This document shows, piece by piece, positions 4,586 to 44,906 of a stretch of DNA of 45,305 nt. Position 1 is the first letter of the stretch. Every line of letters begins with the position of its first letter. The position numbers and the translations under genes are program-made. The notes beneath the pieces are model-generated. The model was not told the DNA's origin. It searched no databases and saw only the letters and a program-made list of their open reading frames with translations. The DNA is from Escherichia virus TH11. Location of the stretch: sequence record MT446389.1. One strand, written 5' to 3'.

Positions 4586-5970
4586 TGCGTAACTATGCGG
4601 CAGAACACCGCGCACTGGAACGCGCGATCGCAAAGCGCAACCGACCGCCGCGCCCGACACGCGTTGCGCAGGCCGTACGCCTTTACCAGCCCGATTGCCT
4701 TCCCCACCAGGTGGAACTACTGCGCGACACAAAGACCAAAATACTCGGCCTGTGTTCCGGCTTCGGTGGCGGAAAGTCATGGGTCGCGGCGCGTAAGGTC
4801 ATCCAGCTTCTGACACTGAACCCGGGTCATGACGGCATCGTGACCGAGCCGACTATCCCACTCCTGGTTAAAATCATGTATCCGGAACTGGAGAAGGCTT
4901 TCGACGAGGCTGGATTCCGGTGGAAGTTCAATAAGCAGGACAAGATTTATAGCGTGCTGGTGAAAGGCAAATGGACCCGCGTTATTTGCGAGTCAATGGA
5001 GAACTACACACGTCTTATCGGTGTTAACGCCGCGTGGATTGTTGCCGACGAGTTCGACACCACGAAGCAAGACGTTGCAATGGCGGCGTATCACAAATTG
5101 CTCGGTCGTCTGCGTGCTGGCTTGGTACGCCAGTTCGTCATCGTGTCCACCCCGGAAGGCTACCGGGCGATGTACCAGATTTTCGAAGTGGAGAAGGACA
5201 GCCAGAAACGTTTGATCCGGGCGAAGACCACGGACAACCACCATTTACCGGCGGACTTTATAGACACGCTGCGCAGTCAGTACCCAGCTAACCTGATCGA
5301 CGCGTACCTGAACGGCCTGTTTGTTAACCTTACGTCGGGCGCGGTGTACAAGATGTTCAACCGCGAGGAGAACGCCAGCACCGAAGAAGTGCAGCCGGAC
5401 GACACACTGATTATCGGTATGGACTTTAACGTCACGAAAATGGCGGCGGTTGTGTATGTCAGACGGCAGCGCGTCACCGAAAACAAGGAGTTCCGCGACG
5501 AGATTCACGCGGTGGATGAATTTGTGGACCTGTTTGACACCCCGGCTATGATTGAGGCGATCGAGGAGCGCTACCCGGAACATTGTGCCGCCGGTAGGGT
5601 CGTCGTTTACCCGGATAGCAGCGGCAAATCCCGCAAGACGGTCAACGCGTCGTCGTCCGATATCGCACAACTGGAAGACGCTGGCTTCGAGGTGGAGTAT
5701 GACAGCGTTAACCCGCCTGTGAAAGACCGACTGATCGCGATGAATACGATGATGTGCAACTCGAAGGGCGTGCGCCAGTATTTTGTCAACCTGGATAAAT
5801 GCCCTACACTAGCGAAATGTCTGGAACAGCAGGTGTACGACCTGAAGAAAGGCGAACCGGATAAAACGGCCGGGGTGGACCACATGAATGATGCAGCGGG
5901 CTATCCAATTGCGCACCTGTTCCCAGTGATTCGTCCGATCGCCGTTGTTCCAACTGTAGACTTCTACTAA
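4585..5970 (+). CDS. terminase large subunit
   Basis: 461 aa, Walker A-like GFGGGKS, acidic nuclease-type C-terminal half, precedes portal. Confidence 0.85.
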   Translation: MRNYAAEHRALERAIAKRNRPPRPTRVAQAVRLYQPDCLPHQVELLRDTKTKILGLCSGFGGGKSWVAARKVIQLLTLNPGHDGIVTEPTIPLLVKIMYPELEKAFDEAGFRWKFNKQDKIYSVLVKGKWTRVICESMENYTRLIGVNAAWIVADEFDTTKQDVAMAAYHKLLGRLRAGLVRQFVIVSTPEGYRAMYQIFEVEKDSQKRLIRAKTTDNHHLPADFIDTLRSQYPANLIDAYLNGLFVNLTSGAVYKMFNREENASTEEVQPDDTLIIGMDFNVTKMAAVVYVRRQRVTENKEFRDEIHAVDEFVDLFDTPAMIEAIEERYPEHCAAGRVVVYPDSSGKSRKTVNASSSDIAQLEDAGFEVEYDSVNPPVKDRLIAMNTMMCNSKGVRQYFVNLDKCPTLAKCLEQQVYDLKKGEPDKTAGVDHMNDAAGYPIAHLFPVIRPIAVVPTVDFY

Positions 5971-5980
5971 GGAAACGAAC

Positions 5981-7501
5981 ATGACCGTTAACGTTGACAA
6001 CCAGCACCCCCTCTATGCGCGCATCGCGCCAGAGTGGAAAATGATCCGGGATTGTGTAGCAGGGGAGCGCGCTGTGAAGGCGTGCGGCCCTTTGTACCTG
6101 CCACATCCTGCCAGCGGCGACAATACTGACCCGAAATCACGGGCGCGGTATAAGGCGTATAAGCAACGCGCTGTATTCCTGAACGCCACCGCCCGCACAC
6201 TTAACGCGCTGTTAGGCGTTGCCTTTGCTAAACCGGTAAGTCTCGACCTTTCCGGGGCGATGGCGGACCTTATTGACGACGTAGACGGCAGTGGTATGCC
6301 GCTGCCGCAACTCCTGCGCGGTGCTATGTCTGAAGTTCTGCAATCAGGTCGTGCGGGCTTTATGGTGGACTACGATCGCCAGGCGCATTTTGATGAACTG
6401 GGTAACGTAGTACCGCAGACAGCCGCTGAGATGGCGTCACACCGCCCGCTTATCCGCCTGTACACGGCAGAACAGATCATCAACTGGCGGCAGACCCACG
6501 GAGCCGATACGCTGATTGTGCTGAAGGAGACGGACGAAATCAGCACCGAAGACCCGGACGACTTCGCAAACCACGAAGTAACAATCTGGACTGAATTGCG
6601 CATGATTAACGGTGCAGCACACGCCCGCCGCTGGTACTACAACGCCGACACGTCCGAGGTGCAAATGGACTTGCCGCGCGGATTCACCCGCACCGACCTG
6701 GTGCCGCTGGTGGATGCTACCGGTAAGGCACTGACACAACTTCCGTTTTGCTGGTGTGGCGCGGTGGACAACAACGCAACGCCAGACGCCGCTCCGCTGG
6801 CAGATATCGCGTCCATCAACATTAAGCACTACAACGCCGAAGCGGACGTCGCCGAGATCGCGCACATCGTGGGCCAACCTACCCTGGTTGCGACGGGCTT
6901 GACTCAATCATGGGCGGACAAGAACCTGAAGGGAGGCATTGCCCTCGGTGCGACTAAGGGCGTTATCCTGGGCCAGAACATGGACGCTAAACTGATCCAG
7001 GCGGAGGAGCGCAACTTGTCGGTTGCACTGTGTGAGCGTCGCGAGTTGCAAATGGCTAAACTTGGCGCAGCCCTGGTTGAGAAGGGGACCGCACCTAAGA
7101 CGGCAACCGAGGCGGCCTACGATGCGCAGACTGATAACAGTATCCTGTCGCTTATTGCCGGTAACGTTGAGAAGGCTTTCAACCGTGCGCTGCAAATCGT
7201 GCAGCTATTCACGGGCGACACCGCCGACCAGCGCGTAACGCTGAACAAGTTCTACACTGAAATCACGGTTGATGCGCAGCTTATGACCGCGATGATGTCG
7301 GGTGTGCAGACTGGTACGGTCCGACTTGCTGACTTCATCAAGTGGATGATGGCCCAGGGCGTCATTGACGACTCGCAAACCGTCGAGCAGGTGGAAGACG
7401 AATTGCGAAATCAGAATCCATTGCCTCAAATGTCCCCTGATGCGGTAGAATCTACCGAAGAAGACCCGGACAAGGTAGCGGACAATGGCGAGAACGATTA
7501 A
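5981..7501 (+). CDS. portal protein
   Basis: 506 aa immediately after large terminase; acidic C-terminus; RBS AAGGAAA. Confidence 0.8.
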   Translation: MTVNVDNQHPLYARIAPEWKMIRDCVAGERAVKACGPLYLPHPASGDNTDPKSRARYKAYKQRAVFLNATARTLNALLGVAFAKPVSLDLSGAMADLIDDVDGSGMPLPQLLRGAMSEVLQSGRAGFMVDYDRQAHFDELGNVVPQTAAEMASHRPLIRLYTAEQIINWRQTHGADTLIVLKETDEISTEDPDDFANHEVTIWTELRMINGAAHARRWYYNADTSEVQMDLPRGFTRTDLVPLVDATGKALTQLPFCWCGAVDNNATPDAAPLADIASINIKHYNAEADVAEIAHIVGQPTLVATGLTQSWADKNLKGGIALGATKGVILGQNMDAKLIQAEERNLSVALCERRELQMAKLGAALVEKGTAPKTATEAAYDAQTDNSILSLIAGNVEKAFNRALQIVQLFTGDTADQRVTLNKFYTEITVDAQLMTAMMSGVQTGTVRLADFIKWMMAQGVIDDSQTVEQVEDELRNQNPLPQMSPDAVESTEEDPDKVADNGEND

Positions 7502-8588
7502 TCAACATATGGCGGATCGCATGATCCGTCGTCACATCTTCACCCAGCGCCTGAGCAATGACCAGGCGCGGCGGGTGCTGGCTATGTGGGAGAAGTTCCG
7601 GCCCACGTTACTGGGTAAGCTGACCGAGTTACTTGATGGCAAAAAGTCCATGAGCAACAAGGCACTTACCACACTATTAACGCAACTCGACAAGACCGTC
7701 AAAACGGAACTGCGCGCCGAGTTTAAAGTGCTGGCGGAGAGCCTTCGGGAGTTCGCCGACACCGAGGCTGATTATCTCGCTGACACACTAACGGCAGCGA
7801 TCCAGCCCGCGGTCGCCGTGCCAGCGGTCGAAGTAGTGGGCGTTGTTACCGGCGCGCAGATTGCAGCGACGGCAATGAAAAACCAGTTCCAGGGTAACAC
7901 CATGATGCAATGGCCTGACTCACTTTCCGAGTGGACCAGGACGCAGATCGGCAATCAGGTGCGCGCTGGATTCATCCAGGGCAAGCCGACTATGGAAATT
8001 ATTGCGGACGTGAGGCGCGCGCTCGGCGGTCGAAGTGCGCAAGCTATCTCAAGCGTTGTTAAGTCCGCGGTCAACCACTATGCGGCGACCGCCCGCGAAC
8101 TAATGGTAAAAGCAAATGACGATATTCTCGAAGGTCGCCAATGGTTGGCTACATTGGACACGCATACTTCTCCCATGTGCCAGCTACGCGATCGCCTGTT
8201 TTATCCGGTTGATGTTACTCCCGACACCAAAGGAAAGCGCGGCGGGAAAGTGGTGGCGGGGTCACAATATGGCGCTGGTCCGGGCAAGCTGCATTATTGC
8301 TGCCGTTCGACGGAGACGTGGAAAGTCAAAGGTATGGAAGATTGGCCCAGTGGTAAGCGTCCGGCACTGAAGGCTGACGCGGGCAGATTGCTGAGCGAGC
8401 AGGTCGACGCGCAGACTGATTTCTTCTCATGGGTGCAGCGCCAGCCGCGCCATATTCTGGAAGAATTATACGGAGTGCAACGCGCCGACCAGATTATGCG
8501 CGGAGTGAAAGTGCCGAAGATGTTCACCGATTCCGGCGAACTAATGACTATCGCACAGCTTAAAAACCGGGGGTTATGGCGTGATTAA
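7485..8588 (+). CDS. head morphogenesis protein (Mu F / SPP1 gp7-like)
   Basis: 367 aa after portal, overlapping start; family assignment from position and composition. Confidence 0.6.
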   Translation: MARTINQHMADRMIRRHIFTQRLSNDQARRVLAMWEKFRPTLLGKLTELLDGKKSMSNKALTTLLTQLDKTVKTELRAEFKVLAESLREFADTEADYLADTLTAAIQPAVAVPAVEVVGVVTGAQIAATAMKNQFQGNTMMQWPDSLSEWTRTQIGNQVRAGFIQGKPTMEIIADVRRALGGRSAQAISSVVKSAVNHYAATARELMVKANDDILEGRQWLATLDTHTSPMCQLRDRLFYPVDVTPDTKGKRGGKVVAGSQYGAGPGKLHYCCRSTETWKVKGMEDWPSGKRPALKADAGRLLSEQVDAQTDFFSWVQRQPRHILEELYGVQRADQIMRGVKVPKMFTDSGELMTIAQLKNRGLWRD

Positions 8589-8910
8589 ATATGCAGCGAT
8601 TGGACTGGTTATCGGTCTGGCGGTAGGATTCTGGCTAGGCGACTCCTATCGTACTGGCGTAGTGGCGGAGGCGGCGCAAGAAGCGCAAGCCCAAGCCCAA
8701 CGGCAGCAAACTAAAGTTGTTGAGCGCTCCGTGCAGGCCGAACAGGCCCGCGACGTAGAATACCGGACTATAACGAAAGAGGTTGTTAAATATGTTACGC
8801 GCCCTAACCGCCCTGATTGTAGTTTTGATGCTGAGCGCGTGCGGATCAAGCAACGTGCCGTTGATGCCGCTAACGGAGTCGGCACTGCGACCGCCGTGCA
8901 AGTTCGATAG
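8581..8910 (+). CDS. putative i-spanin (Rz-like)
   Basis: N-terminal TM helix IGLVIGLAVGFWLG then Q/A/E-rich coiled coil; lipoprotein ORF embedded in +1 frame. Confidence 0.4.
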   Translation: MIKYAAIGLVIGLAVGFWLGDSYRTGVVAEAAQEAQAQAQRQQTKVVERSVQAEQARDVEYRTITKEVVKYVTRPNRPDCSFDAERVRIKQRAVDAANGVGTATAVQVR

Positions 8911-9022
8911 CCCGTCCGCAGACCCCGACGAAGACTTGCTGGTCGATGTTAAGAATATGGAATGTGGTGCGAAGCTGAGGGCGCAAGTGCTGGAGTTGCA
9001 GAAAATAATTCGGGGGCCGTGA
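8783..9022 (+). CDS. putative o-spanin (Rz1-like lipoprotein)
   Basis: Signal peptide with lipobox LSAC, Pro-rich mature part, embedded in and extending beyond 8581..8910. Confidence 0.4.
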   Translation: MLNMLRALTALIVVLMLSACGSSNVPLMPLTESALRPPCKFDSPSADPDEDLLVDVKNMECGAKLRAQVLELQKIIRGP

Positions 9023-9036
9023 TGGCCCCCTTTTTG
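9012..9036. terminator. hairpin terminator between convergent genes
   Basis: gggggcc-gtgat-ggccccc followed by TTTTTG. Confidence 0.5.
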
Positions 9037-9801
9037 TTAGCGCGGAATACCGCAAATCTCGTTTAGCGTCTTCACGTCCAGCGCCACCGCCGTGGACTTC
9101 GGCTTATCCGGGTATGGAATAAACTGTTCAACTTCAGGCCACGCCTTGATCAGTTTCTTATCGGTATTGTGCATATCCAGTACGCCGGTAACTGTTAGTT
9201 TGAACGCGTCATACTTCGCACGCAATTCGCGGCGGGCCTTGTCGTTGCGATCTAGGCGCTTGCAGAAGTCGTGGTCTGCCGGGTAGTCTACGCGACCGCG
9301 CGGAAGATATATCGGCAGCGATTTTCCGTCCTCGTCCACTTCGCACACTGAAGCCAGCATAACTTCCTCGTACCCCGGTACGATATCACCGAGATCGGGA
9401 GATAGCTTGTTCAAATATTTCTCTTCCCAGTATCCGCGGTGCAGGCGGTATCGGTATCCATCGCCGCTCAATGATACGGTGCGAACATTACCGCCTGCGT
9501 TGATATCGAATCCGGCGCTATAAACGCTGCCGATGCCTTTTGGCCGGTCGGAGTTATAGCTATACGTCGCCTTGTCGGTGTAAACGCTAACGCCATACAT
9601 CTGCGACTGGTTATCGCGGATTTCTGCGATATATGCGCGTAACTCGGCGAACGTGCGAATGCCTTCCGGCATACAGTCCAGCGTAATGGCGTACGCCAAG
9701 TCGCGAGAGTCCATCATGATGGATTTTGCTTCGGTCGCGATTTCATGGTCGCGCAGGATGTTAGCCAGAATCTTGTTTTTAACGTCTTTTGTCAGTCTCA
9801 T
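9037..9801 (-). CDS. hypothetical protein, reverse-strand moron in head module
   Basis: 254 aa from internal ATG at 9801 with RBS GAGGA; track ORF to 10248 has a low-complexity extension antisense to the scaffold gene. Confidence 0.55.
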   Translation of the reverse strand: MRLTKDVKNKILANILRDHEIATEAKSIMMDSRDLAYAITLDCMPEGIRTFAELRAYIAEIRDNQSQMYGVSVYTDKATYSYNSDRPKGIGSVYSAGFDINAGGNVRTVSLSGDGYRYRLHRGYWEEKYLNKLSPDLGDIVPGYEEVMLASVCEVDEDGKSLPIYLPRGRVDYPADHDFCKRLDRNDKARRELRAKYDAFKLTVTGVLDMHNTDKKLIKAWPEVEQFIPYPDKPKSTAVALDVKTLNEICGIPR

Positions 9802-9823
9802 TTTTGCGTCCTCGTTGTTGGTG

Positions 9824-9846
9824 TGCAACCAATATATGCAACCAAT
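9824..9846. promoter_or_regulatory. tandem TGCAACCAAT motifs in divergent intergenic region
   Basis: Two copies 13 bp apart between minus gene 9037..9801 and plus gene 9950..10651. Confidence 0.45.
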
Positions 9847-9949
9847 ACGCGGATTGCAAGCGAATTTTGCGATTATTTTTATCACTGATAATATTAGAGG
9901 CGTGAAGTCGAGCGGGTGGCCCGCTCTGCCACAATCCCAGGGGGATAGC

Positions 9950-10651
9950 ATGAAACTTACTAAAGCAGAATATGACGCGTTGCCGGAAGGTATGAAGGCG
10001 CTTTTTGTTGCCGATGGTGACGGGTATAAATCAACGTTCATGACCGCAGAAGAAGTACAGGCGGAGATCAAGGGTCTGAAAGACAACAACGCGAAGCTGG
10101 TGAGCGAGAAGAAAGCAGAAGCTGAACGTCGCGCCGAAGCCGAGCGCCTTGCGAAAGAGAAAGAGGAAGCCGCCGCGCGCAAAAATGGCGACCTCGAAGC
10201 GATCGACAAGTCTTGGAAAGATAAGTTTGCGAAACACGAAGCAGACACATCGGGAAAAATCGAAGCCTATCGCAAGCAGATCCACGATCTAACCATCGGC
10301 AGCGCTGCCAAAGACCTGGCGTCGAAGCTGTTCGGTAAGAATGCGGGCATCATGCAACGCCACGTAATGGACCGCCTGACGCTGGAAGACGGCGAAGACG
10401 GCAGCTTGAAAGTGCGTGTCTTGCAGGATGGCAAACCGTCCGCGCTGACTATGGAAGAGCTTGAAAAAGAGTTCCGTAATAACGCCGATTTCGCATCCGT
10501 CCTGGCCGGCACGCCAGCAGGAGGCGCTCCTAGCAAACCGACGCAGGTTGTCGAAGATGTGAAGTCTAAAATTACGATGGGCCATAGCTTCGGTATCACC
10601 GATCTCACCAAACAGGCCGGGGATATCATCGCTAAAATGGGCGACGAGTAA
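9950..10651 (+). CDS. putative scaffolding protein
   Basis: 233 aa, K/E/A-rich coiled coil, immediately upstream of major capsid gene; start trimmed to MKLTKAEYD. Confidence 0.55.
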   Translation: MKLTKAEYDALPEGMKALFVADGDGYKSTFMTAEEVQAEIKGLKDNNAKLVSEKKAEAERRAEAERLAKEKEEAAARKNGDLEAIDKSWKDKFAKHEADTSGKIEAYRKQIHDLTIGSAAKDLASKLFGKNAGIMQRHVMDRLTLEDGEDGSLKVRVLQDGKPSALTMEELEKEFRNNADFASVLAGTPAGGAPSKPTQVVEDVKSKITMGHSFGITDLTKQAGDIIAKMGDE

Positions 10652-41815: not shown

Positions 41816-44080
41816 ATGAGCTTGATTAAATTCGCTGTAACAAAACCCGCTAAAAAAGGCGAAAAAGCCAGGGCGGAAAACTTCCAGATGACGACCGATG
41901 AGTTTTTCGAATTTATCAAAGATGCGAAAGAAATCTCCTCGGTGCATATCAACAAGACGGAAGATAAAGCCGAGTATGCGCGCCGCAAGCGTAAGGCCGA
42001 TGGCATCGTGGCGTATACCAGTGACGGATTGCGTCGTAAGACCAGTGCGGTGGACCGCTCGATCCTGTTCTTTGATATTGACCGCACCGACACCCGCACC
42101 CTGCGCCGCTGCCGTAAGGCGTTCATCGACGCGGGACTGGAACATGTATTTCACACCACAACCGGCGACCGCCACCCGCTGAAAGGTGGCACGCGTTGCG
42201 CTCGTTTCCTGGTGCTCACCGACAAGCCTGTACCGGCGGAAGACCTAGGCCGCGTACAGTATGCACTGTTACACCAACTGGGCCTGTCAGATGTGGACTT
42301 CGATGATTGTACGAAAGACACAAACCGCCTTATGTACCTACCACACCAGCAGTCCGTTGTTAAGTGTCACTACGGCAAACGTGCCCGCGTCCGTCGTCTG
42401 CTTCGCCTGGCGGATAAGCTGGGAGTGGAAAAAGAGGAAGTACGACGCGAACTGACCCAGGGCGATGACGGCGTGGCTGACGGTATTCTGGATTGGTGCT
42501 TCCAGGCGGGATTCGAACCGCTGTCGTCCGGTCGTGGTTATGAAGTGCCATGCCCGAACGAACACCTGCACAGTGGTGAAGGGTCCACCGCTATCATGGT
42601 TAAGGATGGCGAGATCCGTTTCAAGTGTATGCATACCGGCAACGAGTGTTGCTCGGAGCTGAACAGACACCAGCACCTGGCGCTACGTCTTATCGGGATC
42701 CCGGACCACCTGAACGTCGAACCGCACAACATGTCACGTAAGCAAATCGCCGCCATCCTTCCAGGACTGGACGACGAGGAAGTGGAATCGTGCTATGCGC
42801 ATATCGTTGATGCGGTCGGAGACGGCGACGAGTACGGCGGATGTACAGATGCAGACCTGGACAACGAGCCGGTTGCGCTGTTCAGTAAGCACGACCCGAT
42901 CATCGAGGGGCTGATTAACTTCAAATCGACCTGGTATCTTGCTGGCGAGTCGAACATCGGTAAATCGTTCTACGTGCTGGGCCAGATGGCGTCAGTATCT
43001 GCCGGTATTCCGTTCGGCGGCGCGAAGGTCGTCCAGTGCCACAACTTCTATTTCGACGCGGAAGGTGGTGAAGCCTCCAACCAGCGTAAGGAAGCATTGC
43101 AGATCAAATATGAGCACGACCTGGACAAGCTGCACATTATCGATCTGCAGTCACGCGGCTGGGATATCACCAGCAAATCCGGCTTGCGTGAAGTTATCAG
43201 CTTTATCAACCGCACCGCTAACGGCGAGCCGGTTGGCCTGGTGGCGTTCGACTCACTCAACCAGACTGTCGCGTTGCGGTCAGCCGATGCTAAACCGTTC
43301 GACGAGAACAACGCCAGCGATATGGGCGAAGTGGTCAAAGCGCTGAAGGCTATTGCGGAAAACACAGGCGGCAGTGCGGGAGTCATCCACCACCCGGCGA
43401 AAGGTGCAAACGGCAGCAGATCTCCCCGCGGGTCCGGCGCGCTGCATGGTGCTGTCGATTCCGCGTTCTTCCTGGAGCAACCGGACGACAATCAGCCGGG
43501 CCAATTGAACCTGTACCATGAGAAGGCACGTAACGGCATCAAGCAAGCGCCGCGCGGCTTCGTCCTGCTTAAGTGCAAGGTTAAGGTGGATCTCCGCAAG
43601 TCAGAGGCGTTCGAATCGCACCAGTCCACCAGCACCGGGCCTGACTTCGGTGATGTGGTTGCAGGATGGGACGTCAAGCCGATCGCATCAACGCCACGCG
43701 ACGAGACTCTTTACCTCGTACCTGTCGCCCTGGCACCGTTCGCTATTGAGCAGGCGAAGGCCGCGGGTAAGGCAGCAGTTAAGGAAGAGAACCCCGCAGG
43801 ACCGCGCAACGAAAAAGAGAAAGTGCTTTATGCGGCGCTGGAAAAACTGATGGAAGATAACCCGGACCATACCGGATTCAGTAAATCGGCAATCGTCCGC
43901 CAGGCTGGACTTGCGAAAGGTGGCACATCGACGAAGGCAATAGACGATATGGTCGAGCGCGGCGTGCTCGGTTTCTATACAGATCCGCACACCGGGGCCA
44001 TCTATGGGTCATCGAATATCGTCATCAAAACGAATATACCCATCACGCTTTCGGCGACCGATGATGATTTAAAAGATTAA
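41816..44080 (+). CDS. bifunctional primase-polymerase / helicase
   Basis: N-terminal AEP-like FFDIDRTD, Cys/His zinc cluster, C-terminal Walker A AGESNIGKS and Walker B LVAFDSL. Confidence 0.8.
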   Translation: MSLIKFAVTKPAKKGEKARAENFQMTTDEFFEFIKDAKEISSVHINKTEDKAEYARRKRKADGIVAYTSDGLRRKTSAVDRSILFFDIDRTDTRTLRRCRKAFIDAGLEHVFHTTTGDRHPLKGGTRCARFLVLTDKPVPAEDLGRVQYALLHQLGLSDVDFDDCTKDTNRLMYLPHQQSVVKCHYGKRARVRRLLRLADKLGVEKEEVRRELTQGDDGVADGILDWCFQAGFEPLSSGRGYEVPCPNEHLHSGEGSTAIMVKDGEIRFKCMHTGNECCSELNRHQHLALRLIGIPDHLNVEPHNMSRKQIAAILPGLDDEEVESCYAHIVDAVGDGDEYGGCTDADLDNEPVALFSKHDPIIEGLINFKSTWYLAGESNIGKSFYVLGQMASVSAGIPFGGAKVVQCHNFYFDAEGGEASNQRKEALQIKYEHDLDKLHIIDLQSRGWDITSKSGLREVISFINRTANGEPVGLVAFDSLNQTVALRSADAKPFDENNASDMGEVVKALKAIAENTGGSAGVIHHPAKGANGSRSPRGSGALHGAVDSAFFLEQPDDNQPGQLNLYHEKARNGIKQAPRGFVLLKCKVKVDLRKSEAFESHQSTSTGPDFGDVVAGWDVKPIASTPRDETLYLVPVALAPFAIEQAKAAGKAAVKEENPAGPRNEKEKVLYAALEKLMEDNPDHTGFSKSAIVRQAGLAKGGTSTKAIDDMVERGVLGFYTDPHTGAIYGSSNIVIKTNIPITLSATDDDLKD

Positions 44081-44155
44081 ATTTTGCGCGCATTGGTTGC
44101 CGATATGGGAATTCCCATATCGCTAGAAGATTAAATTTTGCGCGCATTGGTTGCC
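44073..44155. repeat. direct repeat - palindrome - direct repeat element
   Basis: 29-bp direct repeat at 44073-44101 and 44127-44155 flanking perfect 20-bp palindrome gatatgggaattcccatatc at 44102-44121. Confidence 0.7.
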
Positions 44156-44213
44156 ATTTTGAGTGTTTTTATCTGGTCGTATTGGTTGCCGTGTAGTGTA
44201 AATATAGTGAATA

Positions 44214-44402
44214 GTTATGCAGTTTTATTGCATAAAGTAAGCGGGACAAAAAGCGGGACAAACAAGGGGCGGGACAAAGCGGGACAGCACCCCTGTCCCA
44301 CCCCGGATGACGCGGCCTGGAGAGGAGCGGGACAGGCGGGACAACCCCCAGTCTTTCAGACTAGACGGGGGGTCAATGGCCCCCCTCGTCTGAGACTGAA
44401 TA
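44214..44402. repeat. GCGGGACAAA repeat array copy 3 with terminal stem-loop
   Basis: Paralogue of 15565-15735 with a few substitutions; preceded by AT-rich stretch; hairpin at 44350-44398. Confidence 0.7.
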
Positions 44403-44543: not shown

Positions 44544-44594
44544 CATGTTTGATATTGGTTGCATTCAACCCGGCACCTGGCTATATTGGTTGCG
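44544..44594. promoter_or_regulatory. ATTGGTTGC motif pair upstream of gene at 44616
   Basis: ATTGGTTGCA at 44544-44553 and ATTGGTTGC at 44584-44592; reverse-orientation copy near 44466. Confidence 0.4.
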
Positions 44595-44615
44595 CACCAA
44601 CATGAGGACTGAACA

Positions 44616-44906
44616 ATGAGAGCGTTAATCTGGAATTACACAATGGCAGTGGCAAAACCGGTCGAAGCGAGATATACCAACGGCAGAGCACCGTGGGAGC
44701 GCCTGGTAGCTCCGACCTGGTTTGCGGTCATGGATGCGACCGCGGGCATGGAAGACCCCGAGCCGTTGCGCGCGGCTATCAGGGCTTACGCGCTTGCATT
44801 TGCCCGTGAACGCCTGGCCTATCGCTTCGGTATTGGCGATAAGGCAGTGACAAACGTCGCCCGGATTAAAGCCCAGCGCGAACTATTCTCCAAGCTTGCG
44901 AAATAA
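44616..44906 (+). CDS. hypothetical protein
   Basis: 96-aa ORF with RBS GAGGA. Confidence 0.45.
   Translation: MRALIWNYTMAVAKPVEARYTNGRAPWERLVAPTWFAVMDATAGMEDPEPLRAAIRAYALAFARERLAYRFGIGDKAVTNVARIKAQRELFSKLAK

Follow-up and report, generated by a model that had tools for sequence, protein, structure and literature searches.

Mutants of phages SM_A8 and SMS22 that escape the Tmn defence system share the substitution K216E (K296E in the SMS22 numbering) in the gene nmad5 (Yamashita et al., Commun Biol 2025, PMC11846954). Reversion of K216E restores sensitivity to Tmn, and an engineered K216E substitution confers resistance (PMC11846954). The same study reports that nmad5 can be deleted with retention of viability and with no reported plating defect, that the deletion does not lead to escape from Tmn, and that the gene could not be cloned because it is toxic (PMC11846954). 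A loss of function cannot explain K216E, since phages that lack the gene altogether remain sensitive.

Tmn is a decameric membrane NTPase whose cytosolic arms directly bind RIIB, an early protein of phage T2, and the arm surfaces diversify among Tmn variants (2026 preprint, PMC13001434). RIIB is described as a replisome component and as membrane-associated; nonsense mutations in it allow escape from Tmn, and a D219S variant binds without activating (PMC13001434). T2 RIIB and Nmad5 are alike in that a single-residue change in each phage protein alters the outcome with Tmn, and they differ in three respects: (i) RIIB is known to be early, whereas early expression of nmad5 is probable, as its consensus promoter and the gene order in other phages suggest; (ii) RIIB nonsense mutants escape Tmn, but the nmad5 deletion does not and (iii) RIIB is membrane-associated, whereas Nmad5 has no hydrophobic segment. 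A profile comparison between Nmad5 and RIIB of T4, which is closely related to the T2 trigger, gave no similarity (hhalign probability 1.7%).

Here we analyze an nmad5 gene on the reverse strand of Escherichia virus TH11 (MT446389.1), using the term window for the whole 45,305-nt stretch of DNA. The encoded protein (positions 9037–9801) is 86% identical to SM_A8 CDS7 (nmad5) over 254 of 254 residues, and both genes lie on the same strand, flanked by the spanin and scaffold genes. The loci differ in that SM_A8 has a 104-aa cargo gene between the promoter and nmad5, whereas the phage studied here has none. K216 is present in our protein and is invariant in 38 representatives of the Dhillonvirus clade. 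As an orthologue, the nmad5 gene described here should share the SM_A8 and SMS22 traits of dispensability, toxicity on cloning and escape from Tmn through K216E. Dispensability is evident both from the viable engineered deletion and from a natural truncation: SM_S24 has a clean 252-nt deletion, equivalent to positions 9055–9306 of the window, that removes the conserved C-terminal domain. This phage (SMS24) is still inhibited by Tmn (PMC11846954), as expected if phages do not escape when the gene is lost.

The nmad5 gene and its reading frame

The 2.2-kb region surrounding the ORF is 100% identical to that of Escherichia virus TH13 (MT446391.1), a Dhillonvirus, and 91–96% identical to the region in more than 130 other Dhillonvirus genomes. 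The coding sequence (9037–9801, – strand), supported by the ORF list, Pfam and PHROG matches, conservation and dN/dS, comprises 254 codons and a stop, with the ATG at 9801–9799 and the stop codon at 9039–9037. The Shine–Dalgarno sequence GAGGA (9809–9813, – strand) is located 7 nt 5′ of the ATG and is retained in 13 of 13 aligned Dhillonviruses, so the good ribosome-binding site credited to this 254-aa frame in a preliminary description of the locus is borne out.

The protein matches PF18757 (Nmad5, ‘nucleotide modification associated domain 5’) over its full length, with an E-value of 1.2e-56 and a score of 192.5 bits against a gathering cut-off of 27 bits; residues 1–253 align to model positions 1–206 of 206. 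The protein exceeds the 206-position model by about 50 residues, owing to a more variable middle region (approximately residues 111–170). It also matches phrog_1965, a PHROG family of unknown function. Across 13 Dhillonviruses the length and frame of the ORF are kept and dN/dS is 0.116 (dN 0.059, dS 0.503, 78 pairs), ranging by region from 0.24 for residues 51–110 to 0.029 for residues 171–254. The gene is under strong purifying selection, and this dN/dS value together with the full-length Pfam match places the ORF beyond chance; by these comparisons it is a real gene and an orthologue of Dhillonvirus nmad5.

The gene has been described already. The preliminary description had called it a gene of unknown function with no recognizable catalytic motif, which holds in the biochemical sense but overlooks that the protein belongs to a named family. 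Nmad names reportedly originate in Iyer et al. 2013, and the name of the Nmad5 family rests on genomic association with nucleotide- and base-modification genes. Our literature search found no paper in which PF18757 is named and no report of a biochemical activity for any Nmad5 family member. Two similar-looking identifications were considered and rejected: the ‘NMAD’ domain of defence systems in the DefensePredictor study is Nmad2, and Ksap1, the Dhillonvirus trigger of KpAvs2, is a different gene of 74 aa.

The composition of nmad5 is typical of the phage (GC 52.7% and GC3 63.5%, against 54.4 ± 2.6% for the genome, 22nd percentile). Its product is a soluble, single-domain protein: a Kyte–Doolittle scan identified no transmembrane segment, the maximum mean over 19 residues being 0.87. 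Searches of the PADLOC defence families gave no match at E-values up to 1, the sole NCBIfam match was sigma-factor-like and at noise level (E 0.12), and an Rfam scan of positions 8500–10500 returned nothing.

An upstream extension of the same frame (9802–10248, – strand), antisense to the scaffold gene, would give a 403-aa protein from a GTG or a 334-aa protein from an ATG. Neither start has a Shine–Dalgarno sequence. In related phages the upstream frame is interrupted, closed or taken by other genes, and the M-R-L-T sequence that begins the 254-aa form is the N-terminus of nearly all of the 97 aligned family members. On both grounds the 403-aa form is spurious, as the preliminary description had suspected, and sequence comparison places the extension outside nmad5 as an artefact. 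The 334-aa start lies exactly 80 codons upstream of the 254-aa ATG, which accounts for the use of both K216 and K296 for the same residue in the literature; the 334-aa form implied by the SMS22 numbering is probably an over-extension.

Local organization and regulatory signals

In this phage, nmad5 forms its own leftward transcription unit between the spanin and scaffold genes, delimited by a predicted promoter and a predicted terminator. That it constitutes an independent unit within the head-gene block had been proposed from the sequence, and conservation of both signals agrees with this. The promoter, found by a promoter scan, is of the sigma-70 type (9831–9859, – strand) and matches the consensus at 9 of 12 positions, with a –35 element TTGCAA (9859–9854), a 17-nt spacer and a –10 element TATATT (9836–9831). 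It is retained 5′ of the first leftward gene in 11 of 11 genomes, including those in which that gene is a cargo gene. A candidate promoter for the scaffold and capsid genes (9867–9894, + strand) lies in the opposite orientation and consists of TTGCGA (9867–9872), 16 nt and an extended TG-n-TAATAT element (TGaTAATAT, ending at 9894). This element was recognized by eye in a conserved region and falls under the promoter-scan threshold. Of the divergent promoter pair postulated in the preliminary description, then, the leftward member is supported by the scan and by conservation in 11 genomes and the rightward one remains a candidate identified by eye.

The terminator (9012–9036) would serve both strands and is common to the convergent o-spanin gene (+ strand) and nmad5 (– strand). 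Its hairpin (9012–9030) has a G+C stem of 7–8 bp and a predicted stability of about –18 kcal/mol on either strand; on the + strand it is followed by the T-run TTTTTGTT and preceded by an A-run, which is why we assign it as a bidirectional intrinsic terminator. The structure is kept in 13 Dhillonviruses, where the outer pair shows a compensatory change from G:C to A:T, and the terminator placed here in the preliminary description is upheld as a prediction.

Two exact direct copies of TGCAACCAAT are present on the + strand at 9824–9833 and 9837–9846. Read on the – strand as ATTGGTTGCA, they sit in the spacer of the leftward promoter and at about +1. The copies were correctly noted at the outset, but they are not special to this locus: TGCAACCAAT occurs in 9 exact copies in the whole window, where 0.2 would be expected, and it marks many transcription-unit starts. 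In Bas84, of whose genome ~3.6% is non-coding, 9 of 17 sites are intergenic. The motif is a genome-wide regulatory element rather than one particular to nmad5, and the copies at 9824–9846 are probably operator-like sites for some regulator.

Between the scaffold ATG (9950) and the first leftward gene lie 148 bp that are conserved in the genus, and what follows the leftward promoter varies. In this phage and TH13, in SECphi18 and Bas84 and in three IMG/VR genomes, nmad5 comes directly after the promoter. In SM_A8 and in seven of the 11 genomes compared it is preceded by an unrelated small cargo gene, of which there are at least four kinds (109 aa, phrog_24635; 135 aa; 53 aa; and one more in L011); a GGGGC-GAAA-GCCCC hairpin follows the cargo gene and is itself followed by the nmad5 ribosome-binding site. 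The gene nmad5 is near-universal at this locus, being full length (at least 80% coverage) in ~145 of ~158 matching records, and even in a relative with only 44% identity it sits at this position and is transcribed away from the scaffold and capsid genes. The variable upstream cargo genes can be classed as morons; nmad5 cannot.

Conservation within the family and predicted structure

An exhaustive search of 1.84 billion cluster representatives identified only 103 relatives. Almost all are single-domain proteins of 170–250 aa in which the similarity falls chiefly within the final ~90 residues. An alignment of 97 members shows L217, W221 and N247 to be invariant and P222, L246, E223, T213, R2, L3, G104, P253, P229 and G251 to be kept in 83–98%; residue 216 is lysine or arginine in 73 of these proteins, and just ~58–61% retain the D176/H177 pair. 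The resulting family signature consists of an N-terminal R-L-T, a central G, the motif T-x2-(K/R)-L-x3-W-P-E and a C-terminal L-N-x3-G-(L/I)-P. Our nmad5 protein, which matches the family over its full length, has every element of it: R2, L3, T4 and G104, followed by T213-x2-K216-L217-x3-W221-P222-E223 and L246-N247-x3-G251-I-P253. Five of the conserved polar residues, R2, T4, T213, E223 and N247, could form a small active site, an observation that counts against the protein-binding model discussed below.

Structure prediction and a fold search had been suggested as ways to place the protein. The AlphaFold2 model, calculated with a 42-sequence alignment, has a pLDDT of 92 and a pTM of 0.85. 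From the N-terminus, it comprises a set of helices, a four-stranded sheet, the middle region specific to this lineage, a helix of 30 residues, a pair of short helices bearing the W-P-E motif and, last, a tail. The β-bridge residues of the model include both residue 2 and residue 213, on the basis of which the N-terminus and the T213–E223 motif would pack together as one conserved patch that includes K216. We found no solved structural relative of the model and no known enzyme fold, and sequence searches of the PDB with the single protein and with the family profile returned nothing below an E-value of 0.8.

Genomic contexts of the family and the DNA-modification label

Two questions are important in interpreting the name of this family: (i) where are modification genes found next to Nmad5 and (ii) does the label apply to nmad5 of this phage. 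The association is seen in Mesyanzhinovviridae only, among the lineages examined. There the Nmad5 gene is directly upstream of the dUMP hydroxymethylase gene, in or beside a thymidine-hypermodification or glucosylation cassette, as in M6 (ORF056), SN1 (SN1_019), Lydia (PaL_00002), Bordetella phage MW2 (gp16) and PhiJL001 (gp23), and in PhiJL001 it overlaps the dUMP hydroxymethylase gene by 4 nt. These proteins belong to the same family as ours and share 30–40% identity with it in the C-terminal third, but they are encoded beside a modification cassette, whereas nmad5 here is isolated in the head and lysis block. The synteny in Mesyanzhinovviridae, PhiJL001 included, makes a link to nucleotide metabolism conceivable for the family, and this too counts against a protein-binding role.

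Outside the Mesyanzhinovviridae, in the lineages examined, the neighbors of Nmad5 are early, recombination or host-interaction genes. In the early left operon of mEp235 and an Stx1 phage it is the next gene after N (or Nun). Enterobacter prophage remnants have the order CI-type repressor, 229-aa gene, Nmad5 and KilR; other loci have RdgC, a 174-aa gene, Nmad5 and Kil; Erf, YqaJ and Nmad5 with Lar further along; or SSB, a 139-aa gene and Nmad5. In Vibrio phage Athena1 it has early genes on one side and replication protein O on the other, and in a Dinoroseobacter phage it is flanked by a helicase and an exonuclease. The lambdoid and Stx-phage proteins (mEp235 gp37, SH2026Stx1 gp17) are members of the same family that stand alone, with no modification partners nearby; they are ~207 aa long, lack the middle insertion and belong to the N-dependent early left operon of temperate phages. 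Among 5426 complete E. coli genomes, 211 (~4%) carry the Stx-type allele. An all-against-all BLASTP comparison of 32 neighboring proteins from 18 loci identified no partner gene common to different lineages.

The current annotation would have Nmad5 act as a nucleotide- or DNA-modification factor that makes, or contributes to, a modification of phage DNA or of a nucleotide pool, with Tmn sensing the modification and K216E altering the product, and this is also how Yamashita et al. themselves interpret it (PMC11846954). The family name, the handful of conserved polar residues and the conserved place 5′ of dUMP hydroxymethylase, next to a hypermodification cassette, in M6-like, Bordetella and PhiJL001 phages all speak for such a role. 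Several lines of evidence lead us to consider it unlikely. The invariant residues of the family are L217, W221 and N247, with the D176/H177 pair poorly kept, and the model has no known enzyme fold. Survival of Tmn sensitivity in the nmad5 deletion is hard to reconcile with a modification as the signal (PMC11846954). Lambdoid and Stx prophages in E. coli commonly carry Nmad5, with no modification genes nearby, and in tblastn searches with two queries the other thymidine-hypermodifying phages ViI, SP10, PhiW-14 and PaMx11 were absent from the matches and organism summaries listed.

The gene content of a close relative also argues against the annotation. Bas84 has annotated methyltransferase fragments, a ligase, a polynucleotide kinase, a polymerase and helicases, and its annotation contains no aGPT-Pplase, 5-hmdU DNA kinase, dUMP hydroxymethylase or glycosyltransferase. 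In BASEL phenotyping, Dhillonviruses were restriction-sensitive compared with the deazaguanine-modified Queuovirinae. For M6, the hypermodification steps have been assigned to gp51–54, with gp55 dispensable for the first steps, in work with lysate mixtures of gp51–55; the M6 Nmad5, ORF056, is outside the set used, which shows its non-use there and not the absence of a role in vivo. The modification-gene association that lies behind the name of PF18757 is, judged from the Bas84 annotation, absent for nmad5 of this phage, and the label ‘DNA modification enzyme’ is not supported for it.

A proposed protein-binding model

The explanation that best accommodates these observations is that nmad5 encodes a dispensable, soluble and probably early protein that binds other proteins through one conserved surface and is not a DNA-modifying enzyme in this phage. 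We put this forward tentatively, at a likelihood somewhat short of even. It draws its support from the conservation of K216, the published genetics, the precedent of Tmn and RIIB, the placement of relatives in early regions and the conserved patch of the structural model. The binding surface would be formed by the N-terminus (R2, T4, K/R8 and N14) together with C-terminal residues T213, K216, L217, W221, P222, E223 and N247.

By analogy with RIIB, contact between Nmad5 and Tmn can be envisaged as follows. The wild-type protein would touch Tmn by way of its K216 patch, serving as a neutral ligand or as one trigger among two or more that are redundant, and at least one second Dhillonvirus product would also be able to trigger Tmn. 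The K216E substitution, a charge reversal beside the invariant L217, may then allow the protein to occupy Tmn without activating it and so prevent activation by the second trigger. In nature, wild-type Nmad5 could act on a host or phage protein of DNA metabolism or defence that is bound early in infection; a host target that is essential would fit the toxicity encountered on cloning.

A more far-reaching form of the model holds that Nmad5 is misnamed altogether: that it is a protein-binding family with a new fold, common to many coliphages and to E. coli and Stx prophages, and a ligand of the Tmn sensor arms, and that K216E converts it to a decoy inhibitor. We regard this as possible, with the balance of probability clearly against it. 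If true, Nmad5 would be a second class of Tmn ligand after T2 RIIB and structurally unrelated to it.

Other explanations

It is also conceivable that Nmad5 is a non-catalytic adaptor in replication, recombination or post-replicative DNA processing and that its effect on Tmn is indirect. The neighbors seen across lineages (Erf, YqaJ, RdgC, SSB, the Gam/Bet region, replication protein O, helicase, exonuclease and DNA polymerase) would suit such a function, as would the designation of the Tmn trigger RIIB as a replisome component (PMC13001434). The 32 neighboring proteins compared include no conserved partner, however; the Dhillonvirus nmad5 gene is far from the replication module, and the deletion has no reported plating defect (PMC11846954). 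An adaptor role is, in our estimation, somewhat less probable than a role in modification.

The two TGCAACCAAT copies overlap the nmad5 promoter, and the motif recurs at the beginnings of other transcription units, so that Nmad5 might be imagined as a transcription regulator that binds these sites and controls its own promoter; the sigma-factor-like match would point the same way, were it not very weak and indistinguishable from noise at E 0.12. No helix-turn-helix or other DNA-binding fold was detected in Nmad5, a gene that is dispensable and truncated in SM_S24 is unlikely to encode a global regulator, and in many relatives it is a different gene, not nmad5, that adjoins the operator sites. 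We consider regulation by Nmad5 very improbable.

The preliminary description had grouped nmad5 with the morons and host-directed factors of tailed phages, naming superinfection exclusion and abortive infection among the possibilities. Part of this idea survives: the gene is dispensable, toxic and a site of defence escape, as would befit phage–host conflict. A sporadically acquired moron is not what we find, given its presence at full length in nearly all matching Dhillonvirus records, its ancient synteny and its typical composition, and the independent promoter and terminator unit opposite the structural operon is what remains in favor of that reading. Exclusion or abortive infection specifically is hardly credible for a protein with no transmembrane segment and no PADLOC match. 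Membrane association is typical of proteins of the Sie, Imm and Rex type. The annotation of the close relative Bas84 includes neither an integrase nor a CI-type repressor. Least plausible of all is a structural or head-assembly function, for which nothing except position in the head block can be cited: nmad5 is transcribed opposite to the head genes, deletion and natural truncation are both viable, and homologues in other phages sit in early, recombination or replication regions.

Implications

Our analysis of the Dhillonvirus locus establishes the correct start codon of nmad5, the conserved predicted promoter, probable operator-like sites and predicted terminator that surround it and the variable cargo slot upstream. 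It also identifies the misfit of the modification label in this lineage and the lack of a solved structural relative, and provides a testable decoy model for escape from Tmn. The name ‘DNA modification enzyme’ rests on gene-neighborhood evidence that holds in the Mesyanzhinovviridae but not in the Dhillonviruses or the lambdoid and Stx prophages.

Nmad5 combines a confidently predicted fold lacking a solved relative with very strong selection, dispensability in the laboratory and toxicity to the host, and proteins that do so often prove to be host-takeover or counter-defence factors. The phage studied here carries the wild-type K216, and therefore, should Tmn block it, the published single-codon K216E edit should transfer directly, which would be of practical use in phage therapy. 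Finding the target of Nmad5 would explain how the membrane NTPase defence Tmn reads infection by Dhillonviruses.

Organization and regulation of the nmad5 region

In Dhillonviruses, the interval that separates nmad5, the leftward gene encoding an Nmad5 protein, from the conserved leftward promoter is a variable cargo slot. Most other members of the group carry a small gene inserted at this position (2087–2461 in L008, 2050–2457 in L010, about 2325–2486 in L012 and 1146–1460 in L037, each a Dhillonvirus locus, as well as in the further locus L011), and the inserted genes are of at least four unrelated kinds: one encoding 109 aa (phrog_24635), one 135 aa, one 53 aa and one other. A GGGGC-GAAA-GCCCC hairpin follows the inserted gene. 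The equivalent of the slot in the present genome, TH13, is found at about 9802–9830.

On the other side of nmad5, an i-spanin gene (8581–8910, plus strand) and the o-spanin gene embedded in it (8783–9022, plus strand) are flanked by a head-morphogenesis gene and nmad5, and the o-spanin stop codon falls within the hairpin loop of the shared terminator. In the annotation of the close relative Bas84, the spanin genes are distant from those for the holin and endolysin, which are located near the opposite end of the genome.

The promoter and leader of nmad5 are not unique in the genome. A nearly identical arrangement, TATATTGGTTGC(A/G)CACCAACA..GAGGAC..ATG, precedes nmad5 (9836–9799, minus strand) and is also seen ahead of a different small gene at about 44.6 kb (44577–44640, plus strand), and this close match between the two cassettes suggests that the two genes are co-regulated. 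The motif TGCAACCAAT (reverse complement ATTGGTTGCA) is distributed more widely, with nine exact copies in the whole window against 0.2 expected and ∼19 sites if one mismatch is tolerated (2371, 2394, 9824, 9837, 26439, 29795, 31447, 31464, 41277, 44554 and 45103, among others). Tandem pairs are frequent, with a spacing of 12–31 nt, and 9 of the 17 sites in Bas84 are intergenic in a genome of which only ∼3.6% is non-coding. TGCAACCAAT is probably the binding site of a phage regulator, placed at the starts of transcription units. We also note a repeat cluster at 44070–44280, comprising two copies of a 32-nt direct repeat, 54 nt apart and bearing the motif variant ATTGGTTGCC, a further, third occurrence of this variant and three AGCGGGACAA repeats. 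This cluster looks like an origin or operator array.

Natural variation and neighbors of Nmad5

In phage SM_S24 (PP920554.1), a natural 252-nt deletion (positions 2065–2080 of its locus, equivalent to 9055–9306 of the window) eliminates the conserved C-terminal domain of Nmad5. This phage is reported to be still sensitive to the bacterial defence Tmn (PMC11846954).

Among unannotated neighbors of Nmad5 genes, a single similarity crosses lineages. In a Dhillon-like phage (L030), Nmad5 is closely followed by a 170-aa gene (5251–5763) that is a distant relative of a 197-aa gene (1278–1871), the second one after Nmad5 in an unrelated contig (L031), with 28% identity between the products (E = 5e-12).

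In Mesyanzhinovviridae, a dUMP hydroxymethylase gene always lies directly downstream of the Nmad5 gene, irrespective of the final modification: the two genes are at 6010–6609 and 6606–7658 of locus L039 in PhiJL001, where they overlap by 4 nt, at 4707–5270 and 5284–6348 of locus L023 in Bordetella phage MW2, and at 786–1346 and 1469–2524 of locus L004 in Lydia (PV031332.1). The Lydia homologue, PaL_00002, is labelled '5-hmdU DNA kinase domain protein', and an identical label on the neighboring gene is present; the kinase label of PaL_00002 may be an annotation carry-over. The conserved pairing with dUMP hydroxymethylase hints at a possible contribution of Nmad5 to the 5-hmdU pathway in Mesyanzhinovviridae.
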